From the IMG/VR virus record IMGVR_UViG_2563366900_000004: DNA of 39,499 nucleotides, one strand, 5' to 3'. This DNA is from a virus. Taxonomy: Duplodnaviria; Heunggongvirae; Uroviricota; Caudoviricetes. Below, one piece after another: positions 30,001 to 36,000 of the stretch. Made by a program: the position numbers. Positions within the stretch are counted from its first letter, which is position 1, and every line of letters starts with the position of its first letter.

Positions 30001-33000
30001 CGATGCGTCGATGGTTCCGCTCTGAATTGGTTCACGCATTTCATCCATGATTTCCAGCACCAGACGGCGGTGATAGTTATCCGCGACCATTCCAGCATAT
30101 CCCTTCAGGTTTGCGGAACTCGGGCAGTTTTTGCTGGTCATCAGGATTGACGTGAAATGCTCCTCTCCGCACGCCTCGGCAACCATCAGCGCGTCGATTA
30201 GGTTTCTGTTTCGCGCCTGCTTGCGGATAACCTCGAAGGCTTTCCGGTAGAGCGGTATTGAAAACGCTTCCGGCTCAAGCGTTGCCAGAACGTCACTGGC
30301 AATTGGTGTTAATCCACCAATCAGCAGGCCACCGATAACGCTCGCTTCGATATCCTGTTTCATGCAATCCCCCTGTCTGCAAACTTCCCTTCCCGAACTC
30401 CCGTTAACGAATCTTCCCTCAGCAGGTAATCAAAATCTGCCGTCCAGCCCGTGTCGTTGTCTCCGAAGTAAAACGGCTTGGCCTGATGCACAAACGCCCT
30501 GACATACGCTCTGAAACCGTCCACGTTTGGCGTTTTCAGTTGCGGGATGATTTTCTTCAGGCGGCGTTTGCGTTTCTCGTTGACCGCAACAGCGTGTGGA
30601 AGCCTGTCACCGACTTCGGTGTTGTAGGCGTTCAGGAAGGATTCGTAGTCGATTCGTTCTGCCTTGCGACGTTCAGGTTTAACCTGCCCATCGCCTCCCC
30701 CATTGGGGGGTAGGGGGGTATTATTTATATTCTTGTTAATACCTTCTTGTTCATGATGTGCGGTTGTTTGTGCGGCTTCATGTGCGCTTTCATGTGCGGC
30801 ATGTACGCTGAAAGCCGCGCCATTACTGGCTTCATCATGTGCGGCATCATGTGCGGTTGTTTGTGCGGCTTCATGTGCGGGGGAATTGTCCATTTTTTGA
30901 GCGTATTCATGGTAATTTGTGATGGTGATCACACGACCTTTTTGCTTCTCTCCATCAATGGAGATCATCCCCTCTTTCACAAAAACCTGAAGCATCCGCT
31001 CAACCTGATCACGGCTTGCCGGCTTGCCATGCCTGTCGCATAACTGAAGACCTAAATCAGCTGCTGTCACAACCAGTTGACCGGGTTGCAGATGCCATTC
31101 ATGACCTTTGAAATTCGCTTTGTATGGCTTTCTGGCGGCATTCAGGAGAAGGTTTTCCCACAGGGTGCGAAGATAAACATCTTTCGCCCATGACTGTTTC
31201 AGAATGCTCCGGTACAACGGAATGTAACCAGTTTTCTGGTTCTCCATCCTGTTGCTCCTGCGCTCGTGTGCGGCGCTGAAATCGTAGATTTTTGCTGTAT
31301 TGCTCATCACTACCTGCCTTGACGAAAGACCTTAAGAACATCGTTAAACTGACTTACGGATATGTCTTCTTTGATCAGCTTTTCCAGAAATGCGTTTGGA
31401 ATGAACGTATATCCCTCCTCTTTTGGTAGAGACGGGAGCAACGCCCTCGCCTCAGCCTTCAGAAGCTCAGTTCTGGCAACTTTCACAAAAGAGATTTGAG
31501 TTCTTTCATCAATGGAACGAAGGAAGCGCAAACGCTTAGCTTCTTTGTGTGTATCAGGTGGATTAAAGCCTTTGTTTCGCATATAATTACCTCGTTGGAT
31601 GTTATTAAAATTCCATTTGTATTTGATCAGAACGCTCGGTTGCCGCCGGGCGTTTTTTATTGGTGAGAATCGAAGCAACTTGTCGTGCCAATCGAGCCAT
31701 ATCGTCGTCAACGACGCCCCATTCAAGAACAGCAAGCAGCATTGAGAACTTTGGAATCCAGTCCCTCTTCCACCTGCTGATCTGCGACTTATCAACTCCC
31801 ACAGCTTCCGCTGTCTTCTCAGTTCCAAGCATTGCGATTTTGTTAAGCAACGCACTCTCGATTCGTAGAGCCTCGTTGCGTTTGTTTGCACGAACCATAT
31901 GTAAGTATTTCCTTAGATAACAATTGATTGAATGTATGCAAATAAATGCATACACCATAGGTGTGGTTTAATTTGATGCCCTTTTTCAGGGCTGGAATGT
32001 GTAAGAGCGGGAATGTCTTAAGCGGCTTTGTGTTCCGGAGGGAACACGTCATCAAGACTGACTTTTGCGCCTAACTTGTTTAGGCATGCAACAAGAGCGC
32101 GGCATGTTTTAAGGTCTGGGAAGCGACGACCAGATTCCCAATGTCCGATAGCTCCCTGTGTGCATCCAACTGCCTTAGCAAGTGTTGTTTGAGAGATATT
32201 CAGTGACTCTCGATATTTTCGTAGGTTGCTCATATGCCCTCCATAGTAACCATGAAACAATAATACGATATGTACTTTTAGAATGCAAACAAAAAAATAC
32301 ATCTTGTGCATGGATGGTTTTAGTACAGAGCGTAATAATAAGGGTATGAAAATGAAATGGTATGAACTGGCTAGATCCAGAATGAAAGAGCTCGGCATAA
32401 CTCAAGAGAAGTTAGCTGAAGAGCTTGGTATGACGCAGGGTGGAATTGGTCACTGGTTGCGCGGATCTCGTCATCCATCTCTTGACGAGATTGGTGTGGT
32501 GTTTAAATACCTTGGTATTGATAATGTCTCATTCAACCACGACGGTACATTTTCACCTGTTGGCGAATACTCATCTGCCCCCGTTAAAAAACAATATGAG
32601 TACCCTGTTTTTTCTCATGTTCAGGCCGGGATGTTCTCGCCTGAGCTTAGAACCTTTACCAAAGGTGATGCGGAGAGATGGGTCAGCACAACCAAAAAAG
32701 CCAGTGATTGTGCGTTTTGGCTTGAAGTTGAAGGTAATTCCATGACCGCGCCAACAGGATCCAAGCCAAGCTTTCCTGACGGGATGTTAATTCTCGTTGA
32801 CCCTGAGCAGGCTGTTGAGCCAGGTGATTTCTGCATAGCCAGACTTGGTGGTGACGAGTTTACCTTCAAGAAACTGATCAGGGATAGCGGTCAGGTGTTC
32901 CTACAGCCACTAAACCCGCAATATCCAATGATTCCATGCAATGATAGCTGTTCCGTAGTAGGGAAAGTTATCGCCAGCCAGTGGCCTGAAGAGACATTTA

Positions 33001-36000
33001 GTTAACAGCCTCACCACTCTAAAACACACAACAATAACCCGACCTTAGCGTCGGGTTTTCTTTTTCCAAAATATAAACCCATTAAATACAAAGCGTTATA
33101 AAAAACCAATTATATTTAGAACATTTTGTATTGACTCGATAAAGTACAAATCGTACTATTTAGCCATCAGCAGGACGCACTGACCACCATGAAGGTGAGG
33201 CTCTTAAAAATTAAGCCCTGAAGAAGGGCAGCATTCAAAGCAGAAGGCTTTGGGATTGGATGAATGAGCAGGCTGATGCTCGACCAATGTATAAACAGCG
33301 CTCATGGCAAGCAGTAACCAATCTGCGCCTCAAGACAGCGTCACTGGTAGTGCGGGCGCTCTAACCAGTAAGCCGGGGTTCAGCGCCGGCCATCCAATCA
33401 CCAAAGCTAACTGACAGGAGAATCCAGATGGATGCACAAACACGCCGCCGCGAACGTCGCGCAGAGAAACAGGCTCAATGGAAAGCAGCAAATCCCCTGT
33501 TGGTTGGGGTAAGCGCAAAACCAGTTAACCGCCCTATTCTCTCGCTGAATCGCAAACCGAAATCACGAGTAGAAAGCGCACTGAATCCGATAGACCTTAC
33601 GGCGCTGGCTGAATACCACGAACAGATTGAAAGCAACCTGCAACGTATTGAGCGCAAGAATCAGCGCACATGGTACAGCAAGCCACGCAGTGAAATGGGT
33701 GTGACTTGTGTTGGTCGCCAGAAAATGAAATTAGGCAGCAAACCACTTATTTGAGGTGATATATGGACAAGAAAATTAAATCATTGAAGCCAGGAATTGT
33801 TATCAGAGACATAAGTGGTGATTACGATACAGAGACATATGATATTTTATATGTGCATGCAGATGGAAAATGTCAGTATTCGAACGACATTTTTAATAAT
33901 AAAGGTGGTGCCGAAATTGCTGCCACCACAGTTAATAAAGAGTTAGTAGCTAACGAGTCGTGGGATTATTTTATGCCATCATCCACTTCTATGAACTGGA
34001 AAGTGGTTTTGTACATTCCATCATAATTGTAGCTGCCGTTCAAAAATGAAAGTAAATCTAACATCACAGGCCGCATAGTCGGCCTTTATTTTTAAGGTGC
34101 TATATGAAAATTAAAACTATGGGCGCAAGCCCATTGAGCGGTCGTATTTTTCAAGGAACATTAAACACTGAAAAAGGAATGTGGGTAGGAAAGAAAGAAG
34201 ATGTCACCGAGCAAGCGGTTAAGGCAGTAGCTGAACACCTGATGATAAAAGACCAGAAATACGCATACGAAACGAAGGATGGCAAATGGCTGATAATAAG
34301 CCATCAACTGGTTGATAAATTACCAGAAGAGTTTATTGCTGGTTAAATTCACCTTGGAACAAACAACAGAATAAACACTGCGCTGTGTATTCATTCCAAC
34401 GAGTGAATACACGGAGCAATGTCGCTCGTAACTAAACAGGAGCCGACTTGTTCTGATTATTGGAAATCTTCTTTGCCCTCCAATGTGAGGGCCTTTTTAT
34501 ATGCATACCAATAACGCTTCACTCGAGGCGTTTTCGTTATGCAATCAAACAGAAGGAGCATCCTATGCAACAGTTCGCTATTGCAGGGGCGGCATCGGTT
34601 CGCCCTTTCAACCCGATTTTATCGGTACAGCATTCACGAAAAAACATTTTAACCGGAGCAGACTTTAAACAACCAAGAATGAAAAGTTTGCTCGAAAAGC
34701 TTTGGGATATTTTGAAACAACAAGGCCGTCCATGAGTTTTACGGATAACTGGTCAGACGAAGAATTCATTCGTCAGATGAACAAAATGCTCAATCAGCAC
34801 AAAGAACAGGAGAAAGATGATGATTCTGACTCTGAATGATAAGCGTGAAATATCGCAAATAATCGCAAGTTTTACTGATGAAGATTACGAACGAATTAAC
34901 AGTGAAGTTGATCGCCTCTGCAAACGTTGCGACCCAATAAGCGAAATGCTTCGCTCATATAAACCAGATGAACACACTAAGGACGCTATCGACTGGCTGG
35001 AAGATGATGACTGTAACTATCAGGAAAAAGCCGCTGAATGGTTCTGGTATGCAATAACCGAAAGAGTTAAGGCTGAATATGCCTTCGCAATATTTAAACG
35101 CAGACACATTTTTGGAGAAGCAGCATGAGCAATATCGTTGAATTCGTTAAACAGCAAGAGCAGTTATTCTGCGGAGCATTGACTGAACAGACGGTGACAT
35201 GGGCTAAGGAAAGCCAGTTTGCAATTCAGTATTTCCAGAAAAACGATTACCTGGCTAAAACAGCACTGGCAAATCCAACCAGCGCACAGAACGCCATCAT
35301 CAATGTTGCGGCGATCGGCATCACCTTAAACCCTGCAAGCAAACTGGCTTATCTGGTTCCGCGCGATGGCATGGTTTGCCTTGATATCAGCTATATGGGA
35401 TTGCTCCATATTGCAATGGAGTCTGGTGTTATCTCATGGGGTCAGGCAAAACTTGTTCATGCTAACGATACCTATGAGTCAAACGGGCTTGATAAAGCAC
35501 CAACCCATAAATACAACGCCTTCGGTGATCGTGGTGATATCGTTGGCGTTTACTGCACAGTTAAGACGCCGGCAGGTGATTATCTAACGGAAGAGATGAG
35601 TCTGGCTGAAATTGAGGCTGTAAGGAAAACAAGCAAGGCAGCATTCAGCGATAAAGGACCATGGGTAAATCACTGGAATGAGATGGCGCGAAAGACGGTC
35701 GTAAAGCGTGCAAGCAAGTATTGGCCTAAGGCATCACGTCTTGATAGTGCTATTCACGTACTAAACGAAGAAGAAGGTGTATGGACTGAACCAGTTATGC
35801 CGCACAAATCAGAGGAAGATATCCGCGAAGATGAACGGAAACGCCAGCAGGAAATAACGGATAAAGCACAACTTCTTTGTGATGAAATGGCTCAGGCAGA
35901 AAACATGGATGATTTGAAGCGATATTTTGCAGAAGCATATCGCCTGACATCTGGAATGAAATTGCAGCAGAACATACAAGCCATTTACATAGAATGCAAA

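Follow-up and report, generated by a model that had tools for sequence, protein, structure and literature searches.

The Caudoviricetes phage record IMGVR_UViG_2563366900_000004, whose complete 39,499-nucleotide stretch was analyzed and is called the window below, contains the lysis/lysogeny control region of a temperate E. coli phage. This immunity region is very probably a bistable CI/Cro switch of lambdoid design whose immunity type is that of VT2-Sakai (cI2c/cro4), in a P22-type phage that resembles HK620 and Sf6. The type itself, the lambda-like C terminus of its CI, and its six putative operators are already known and not new. All three were described about 25 years ago in VT2-Sakai and related Shiga toxin (Stx) phages, and the region carries little weight as a discovery. 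As cited in PMC10742460, Fattah 2000 described this CI as lambda-like C-terminally and dissimilar N-terminally; the literature puts the overall identity of VT2-Sakai-type CI to lambda CI at about 61%, and typing of Stx phages designates CI and Cro of this kind cI2c and cro4. The practical value of the present analysis is that it assigns the phage to an immunity group and gives base-level coordinates for its operators, promoters, and mosaic junctions.

Assignment to the VT2-Sakai-type group relies on the DNA-binding domain of CI, on Cro, and on the operators. DNA spanning cro, the right operator region (OR), and the CI N-terminal domain is 98 to 99% identical to that of phages Dewey, Louie, vB_EcoP-720R6, vB_EcoP-683R2, and phi458, and about 93% identical to that of VT2-Sakai (Sp5), an Stx1-converting phage (AP005153), Stx2 II, and Nil2, as well as 2851, 1717, YYZ-2008, and the PA series. 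Compared with the Stx1-converting phage, Cro is identical at 71 of 71 residues and CI is 97% identical, including 80 of the 83 N-terminal domain residues (96%). The window thus encodes the same CI DNA-binding domain and the same Cro as the cI2c/cro4 group. It also has the same operator set: six 17-bp putative operators of VT2-Sakai were tabulated in a 2023 paper, and the six sites in the window correspond to them one-to-one by position, with one or two substitutions each that fall mostly in the center or at the edges (the published VT2-Sa counterpart of OR1, for instance, is AAGTACATATTGTATTT). Further, the AP005153 record annotates 17-bp "putative operator" features, three of them at OR and one (OL3) at the left operator region (OL).

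Members of this group differ in what surrounds the module. In Dewey, Louie, 720R6, 683R2, and phi458, the whole cro-cI-OL region is 98 to 99% identical to the window, and both the lambda-type flanks and the six sites are shared. The Dewey/720R6 group departs from the window by single bases, such as one A fewer between OR1 and OR2, and OR2 itself differs by one base between Dewey (TTGTACAT) and the window (TTGTGCAT). In contrast, VT2-Sakai and the Stx phages have HK022-like or Stx-phage-type flanks, whereas those of the window (cII, nut, and N) are of lambda type. The distance from OL1 to OR1 is about 2.3 kb in VT2-Sakai but 881 bp in the window, which has no cargo between cI and OL, and the VT2-Sakai cI gene has a premature stop whereas that of the window is intact. 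Unlike the Stx phages, the carrier here is a P22-like podovirus without stx. The immunity module is present in 776 of 5,426 complete E. coli genomes (about 14%, or one in seven), and the type is very common in pathogenic E. coli.

To define the mosaic structure of the region, we compared the window with lambda by blastn, which returned five matching blocks. The window lies in the reverse of the standard lambda map orientation.

31609-32011: 97.8% identical to lambda 38649-38247; cII to nutR, stopping 6 nt beyond the cro stop codon
32595-32999: 93.6% identical to lambda 37637-37233; the lambda-homologous portion of cI (plus strand), from residue 84
33028-33063: 88.9% identical to lambda 35834-35799; terminator region, which in lambda lies 3' of rexB
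33165-33254: 98.9% identical to lambda 35583-35494; pL +1 to nutL
33399-33729: 93.7% identical to lambda 35389-35062; N

There was no blastn match to lambda in 32012-32594, which covers cro, OR, the CI N-terminal domain, and the linker, or in 33064-33164, which covers OL and pL. Because lambda homology restarts just past the cro stop codon, within the CI linker, and at pL +1, the region carries a non-lambda specificity set among lambda-type N, nut, and cII. The mosaic blocks and the absence of lambda-type operators support the preliminary description of the sequence on this point.

The CI protein is itself divided along the same line. Residues 84 to 219 are identical to lambda CI at 133 of 136 positions (97.8%), whereas residues 1 to 83, which form an HTH_3 (helix-turn-helix) N-terminal domain, are only 21% identical; the junction, at residue 84, falls in the interdomain linker. 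Pfam searches identify HTH_3 (8e-11) and Peptidase_S24 (9e-29), and Ala94-Gly95, Ser132, and Lys175 align with the A111-G112 cleavage site, S149, and K192 of lambda CI. The protein therefore has the architecture of a lambdoid repressor, with an N-terminal helix-turn-helix domain followed by a self-cleaving C-terminal S24 (LexA-like) domain that contains the Ala-Gly site and the Ser/Lys dyad. Its best match in the PDB is the lambda repressor, 3BDN (2e-96), by way of the C-terminal domain; a sequence-only PDB search with the N-terminal domain returned just weak, generic HTH_3 matches (best E = 1e-4) and no structure of that domain. Cro likewise belongs to HTH_3 (Pfam, E = 4e-12), and its alignment with lambda Cro is poor, gapped, and not convincing. 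Both the near identity of the CI C-terminal domain to lambda and the non-lambda character of the N-terminal domain and Cro, as first described, were borne out, and neither the CI N-terminal domain nor Cro is of the lambda immunity type. The recognition helices are TQGGIGHW in CI and TQGAIGHW in Cro.

The preliminary description had also proposed a shared 15-mer of the form AGTACA-N3-CGTA(C/T)T at two positions in OR and two at pL. All four copies are real, with some corrections. The copy placed at about 32265-32279 is at 32262-32276, on the minus strand, and matches exactly (AGTACATATCGTATT). The second OR copy, placed at 32321-32335, reads AGTACAGAGCGTAAT and lies at 32322-32336; its one mismatch is in the last hexamer, CGTAAT rather than CGTA(C/T)T. 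At pL, AGTACAAATCGTACT is exact in sequence and coordinates (33143-33157), and the weaker copy, given as about 33086-33100, is AATACAAAGCGTTAT at 33085-33099, with three mismatches, and lies within OL3. The occurrence of these 15-mers is nonrandom: with one mismatch allowed, there are three matches in the 39.5 kb, all in OR or OL, against 0.15 expected, and none of 100 dinucleotide-preserving shuffles reached three.

These 15-mers are the cores of 17-bp putative operators, of which there are six rather than four, OR2 and OL2 having been missed. About 39,500 positions of the window were scored with a strand-symmetric position weight matrix (PWM) for which the published VT2-Sakai sites were the sole input, so that it is independent of the window. 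The sites and their scores are as follows.

32261-32277, minus strand: OR1, AAGTACATATCGTATTA, 18.1 bits; in the PR spacer, overlapping the -10 hexamer
32295-32311, plus strand: OR2, AAATACATCTTGTGCAT, 10.9 bits, the weakest; abuts the weak PRM -35 hexamer
32321-32337, plus strand: OR3, TAGTACAGAGCGTAATA, 15.0 bits; overlaps the predicted PRM -10 hexamer
33084-33100, plus strand: OL3, AAATACAAAGCGTTATA, 14.8 bits
33117-33133, plus strand: OL2, TAGAACATTTTGTATTG, 16.2 bits; overlaps the pL -35 hexamer
33142-33158, plus strand: OL1, AAGTACAAATCGTACTA, 20.4 bits; in the pL spacer, overlapping the -10 hexamer

The five top-scoring positions in the window are, in order, OL1, OR1, OL2, OR3, and OL3; OR2 ranks eighth. 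OL1 is the best and most symmetric site. At a threshold of at least 14.8 bits there are five matches, all in OR or OL, compared with 0.17 per shuffled window. The six sites share the consensus W-A-R-T-A-C-R-N3-Y-G-T-A-Y-T-W, with an AC/GT core (A5 and C6) that is invariant in 12 of 12 half-sites, and the motif is palindromic, as expected for the target of a dimeric helix-turn-helix protein. All homologous immunity regions examined contain it, which disposes of the objection that it might be absent there, and the position of OR2 is conserved in all homologues. Similarly, an arrangement of three plus three sites is found in 720R6, Dewey, VT2-Sakai, 2B8, ev207, and the Salmonella phages ST64T and SEN22. 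The centers of OR2 and OR3 are 26 bp apart and those of OL1 and OL2 25 bp apart in all variants compared; the OL2-OL3 distance varies from 30 to 33 bp, and that between OR1 and OR2 is 34 bp in the window, 33 bp in 720R6 and Dewey, and 32 bp in VT2-Sakai, owing to an A-run of variable length, versus 24 bp in lambda.

Two other matrix matches were set aside. The site at 31608-31624 (AAATTCCATTTGTATTT, 11.7 bits), at the 3' end of cII, is probably a chance match, as it lies in lambda-type cII sequence and one of its halves has no AC core. The same site recurs in Dewey (locus L005, 2097-2113) and in the Klebsiella phage phiKp_30 (locus L008, 542-558). The match at 33101-33117 (9.8 bits), one half of which has no GT core, was likewise judged to be due to chance.

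The operators sit within the following arrangement of genes and signals.

31605-31900, minus strand: cII, lambda-type open reading frame; it flanks the immunity module and has no part in the specificity determinant
31978-31992, minus strand: nutR boxB, lambda-type, GCCCTGAAAAAGGGC, within the 97.8% lambda-identical block, where lambda Nutr is annotated
32018-32233, minus strand: cro (71 amino acids), open reading frame with Pfam HTH_3
32288-32260, minus strand: PR, with -35 TTGCAT (32288-32283), a 17-nt spacer, and -10 TATTAT (32265-32260), from the promoter scan, which listed it as TTTGCA-18-TATTAT
112-bp gap between the divergent cro and cI: OR
32346-33005, plus strand: cI (219 amino acids), Pfam HTH_3 and Peptidase_S24
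33036 to 33057 or 33066, plus strand: intrinsic terminator 3' of cI, from the terminator scan; homologue of the lambda terminator downstream of rexB
33064-33164: OL/pL
33131-33159, plus strand: pL, with TTGACT, a 17-nt spacer, and TACTAT, from the promoter scan
33215-33229, plus strand: nutL boxB, lambda-type, GCCCTGAAGAAGGGC, inside the 98.9% lambda-identical block
33428-33754, plus strand: N antiterminator, lambda-type, Pfam N36 (E = 2e-26), 93.7% identical in DNA to lambda N

The region shows the layout of a lambdoid switch: cI and cro diverge around a short OR that contains PR, found by the scan, and a predicted PRM, and three related, partly palindromic sites at each of OR and OL overlap PR and PRM on one side and pL on the other. 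The first operator is placed alike in the two lytic promoters, OR1 and OL1 each lying in the spacer and overlapping the -10 hexamer. Transcription from pL is predicted to start at 33166, where the lambda-identical leader (AUCAGCAGG...) begins; the blastn homology starts at 33165. For PRM, the predicted -10 hexamer is AATAAT at 32334-32339, 7 nt 5' of the cI ATG at 32346; at this distance the PRM transcript is predicted to be leaderless, like that of lambda, which places the center of OR2 at about -43 from the predicted start.

From these positions we infer how the switch would work. CI dimers would bind the six partially palindromic 17-bp operators through the HTH_3 N-terminal domain. OR1 and OL1 lie over the spacer and -10 hexamer of the two lytic promoters, PR and pL respectively, and OL2 lies over the -35 hexamer of pL, so that bound CI would be expected to block both promoters. 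OR2, at about -43, would be positioned for activation of PRM as in lambda, and OR3, lying over the PRM -10 hexamer, would serve negative autoregulation and the action of Cro. The recognition helices of Cro and CI (TQGAIGHW and TQGGIGHW) are so alike that both proteins are expected on the same sites, and Cro binding at the CI sites would give the switch its second state. The lambda-type C-terminal domain would provide dimerization, pairwise and long-range cooperativity, and RecA-stimulated self-cleavage involving Ala94-Gly95, Ser132, and Lys175. It should also allow looping between OL and OR, where OL1 and OR1 are separated by 881 bp.

The beginning of cI is itself of note. The gene opens with two in-frame ATGs, at 32346 and 32352 (ATGAAAATGAAATGG). 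Every E. coli variant keeps both, and ST64T has just the upstream one. The position of ATG 32346, 7 nt after the -10-like AATAAT, suggests that it is the start used on leaderless PRM transcripts. ATG 32352 lies 7 nt after AAGGG, a Shine-Dalgarno sequence that is usable on longer, pRE-type transcripts. Many database records give a longer cI open reading frame that starts inside OR2/OR3 (ATG 32310 or 32283), and this longer annotated start is probably wrong.

Compared with lambda, the region has the same gene order, a tripartite OR and OL, 17-bp sites, a probable leaderless cI, the C-terminal domain of CI with its cleavage and catalytic residues, and the nut sites, N, and cII. Its geometry is also lambda-like, with pL operator centers at -16 and -41 and OR2 at about -43 of PRM. 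It differs in its CI N-terminal domain, the HTH_3 fold family of Cro, operators unrelated to those of lambda, the wider OR1-OR2 spacing, and the lack of rexAB. Neither OR nor OL contains the lambda operator consensus (TATCACCGC...GGTGATA), and a lambda-operator PWM scored at most 3.2 bits anywhere in OR or OL of the window, versus 13.5 to 22.4 bits on the six sites of lambda.

A related family of switches is found in Salmonella phages. The cro-c2 DNA of ST64T and SEN22 is about 64% identical to the window; the N-terminal domain of the repressor C2 is 46% and Cro 69% identical to the corresponding window proteins, and the recognition helices are shared (TQGAIGHW and TQGAIGHY, within a family TQGxIGHW/Y). 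The immC regions of phages L, ST64T, and SEN22 have the same operator consensus and the same OR spacing (34 and 26 bp). Their C2 C-terminal domain, however, is 48% identical to that of the window CI and not of lambda type, and their flanks are P22-type (gene 24 and c1). The window is thus not identical to phage L/ST64T immC in repressor, C-terminal domain included, or in Cro; it is a different module of a related family.

In more distant relatives of the CI N-terminal domain the motif is shifted, with half-site ATTACA in place of A(G/A)TACA. Vibrio phage Her, whose CI helix is SQSAIAHW, has ATTACA-N3-YGTAAT sites at 2446-2520 and 3721-3737 of locus L011, and Pseudomonas phage psageB2 (TQGGVAHW) has them at 2440-2456 and 3338-3379 of locus L012. 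In both phages these sites adjoin cI and also lie downstream of it; in Her they are found in the cro-cI gap as well. Proteus phage Pm34 (SKGAVGHW) lacks such sites. Because the half-site shifts with the recognition helix across relatives, the motif tracks the DNA-binding domain. The residue that distinguishes IGHW from IAHW or VAHW may be a single-residue specificity determinant, on a comparison of two lineages with two.

Two further phages were compared. The repressor of an O104:H4 Stx2 phage (BAA2326), also about 61% identical to lambda CI, has been footprinted at three OR sites and shown to bind OR1 and OR2 cooperatively. We considered whether it was the same protein as the window CI and rejected this, since the operators footprinted for it (ATAACTGTGCGTAATG and others) bear no relation to the window sites. 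With a different operator specificity, the BAA2326 biochemistry is not transferable to the window. The Klebsiella phage phiKp_30 (LC768498; locus L008, 900-1180), a sewage isolate with Klebsiella listed as host, has lost cI almost wholly. Of this immunity type it still has cro, OL1, OL2, OR1, and a degraded OR3, and it resembles an obligately lytic derivative from which the repressor was deleted.

The assignment of a distinct VT2-Sakai-type immunity has to be weighed against the possibility that lambda CI recognizes these operators, or that the two CIs cross-react, so that the phages are cross-immune. Cross-immunity between lambda and VT2-Sa was reported by Fattah 2000 (as cited in PMC10742460), lambda CI shifted all six VT2-Sakai operators in electrophoretic mobility shift assays (EMSAs; PMC10742460, Table 1), and the 97.8% identity of the two C-terminal domains makes mixed oligomers conceivable. 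The apparent dissociation constants of lambda CI on the VT2-Sakai sites were nevertheless 3.7 to 6.4 uM, at or above that of lambda's weakest own site, and binding was 10 to 30 times weaker than on lambda OR1 and OL1 (PMC10742460); this micromolar range is consistent with nonspecific binding. Moreover, the lambda matrix finds nothing in OR or OL of the window, the N-terminal domains share 21% identity, and the recognition helices differ. We therefore rejected recognition by lambda CI and regard an immunity shared with lambda as very unlikely; the reported cross-immunity is not explained by operator similarity. A distinct immunity could still have been assembled recently, this phage or a very close ancestor having taken the CI C-terminal domain, N, nut, and cII directly from lambda, and the strongly lambda-like flanks (97.8% across cII/nutR and 98.9% from pL +1 to nutL) would fit such a history. 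The DNA for the C-terminal domain, however, is only 92.9% identical to lambda and about equally far from the Stx1-converting phage (91.2%), which is in turn 92.9% identical to lambda, and most differences are synonymous. The junction in the linker is also common to all VT2-Sakai-type phages. The shared junction and the mutual identities of 91 to 93% indicate that the domain fusion is old and predates the divergence of the group. The early suggestion of a "graft" onto lambda parts is accordingly right as to the mosaic; a recent origin of the chimera we consider highly improbable. Recent exchange looks likely only for the cII/nutR and pL +1/nutL blocks (98 to 99%).

It is also conceivable that the 15-mers are not operators but reflect chance or promoter-related AT-rich similarity, with CI binding elsewhere. 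Some observations could be read in this way: single sites can be weak, OR2 scoring 10.9 bits; about eight matches of at least 9 bits occur per shuffled window; and operators overlap promoter elements. Against the proposed switch itself stand the low score of OR2, which two chance matches elsewhere in the window exceed, and the spacing of OR1 and OR2, 34 bp rather than the 24 bp of lambda, which makes lambda-style cooperativity between them an assumption. In the literature we found no report of cognate CI or Cro binding to these sites, the sole EMSAs having used lambda CI. Conservation favors the switch, with 78% of operator core positions conserved in the comparison with ST64T and 43% of the other intergenic positions (Fisher p = 1.2e-6), but this difference is confounded by the overlap of operators with promoter hexamers. 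As evidence that the 15-mers are operators, strong matches to the matrix are confined to OR and OL, and the three-plus-three count, the order, and the positions relative to promoters are kept across several phage genera despite diverged surrounding DNA. The motif is palindromic, and the half-site changes together with the recognition helix. An origin of the 15-mers other than as operators is thus extremely improbable, and the reading of the six sites as operators of a VT2-Sakai-type switch is retained.

On this assignment, the phage should be homoimmune with many O157:H7 Stx2 and Stx1 prophages and heteroimmune with lambda. That Cro is identical, the CI N-terminal domain nearly so, and the operators matching leads us to predict homoimmunity with VT2-Sakai-type phages. 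A more tentative proposal, which we think unlikely, is that in polylysogens the window CI joins lambda-type CI in mixed oligomers (dimers, tetramers, or octamers), as might be possible for a protein that joins a 97.8% lambda-like C-terminal domain to an N-terminal domain and operators of the phage L/ST64T kind. Were this so, partial cross-immunity or cross-destabilization between heteroimmune prophages would be expected, and the cross-immunity between lambda and VT2-Sa reported by Fattah 2000, as it is cited, could be accounted for. Two predictions are tied to this proposal: the operators of phages L and ST64T should be recognized by CI and Cro of the window, and half-site position 3 may go from G/A to T when alanine replaces the glycine of the recognition helix (IGHW to IAHW or VAHW), as in the Vibrio and Pseudomonas relatives.

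Outside the switch proper, several features of the window differ from lambda or vary among relatives. The slot that holds rexAB in lambda (33006-33083 in the window) contains only the terminator and neither rexAB nor other cargo genes. The corresponding interval between cI and OL is filled by differing, unrelated open reading frames in VT2-Sakai (locus L004, 3588-5070), 2B8 (locus L006, 4487-5640), and ev207 (locus L007, 4488-6000), making it a variable cargo (moron) slot that is cotranscribed with cI.

In the N leader, the segment from nutL to the start of N (33255-33398) has no match to lambda, whereas its flanks are 94 to 99% lambda-like. The entire leader (33166-33440) folds at -105 kcal/mol (z = -4.8) and is very stable, and the non-lambda insert is closed by a long stem, GGGAUUGGAUG...CAUCCAAUC. 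This stem resembles a variant of the RNase III-sensitive hairpin in the N leader of lambda. A scan of the whole window against Rfam at gathering thresholds returned no matches.

Beyond this region, the window is the sequence of a P22-type phage similar to HK620, Sf6, and CUS-3. A 12-bp unit, TCATGTGCGGnn, is repeated eight or nine times at 30750-30892, within the gene for the O-like replication initiator (30360-31310, minus strand), and shows up in the protein as a recurring AHEAAQTTAH stretch; these repeats are probably origin iterons.

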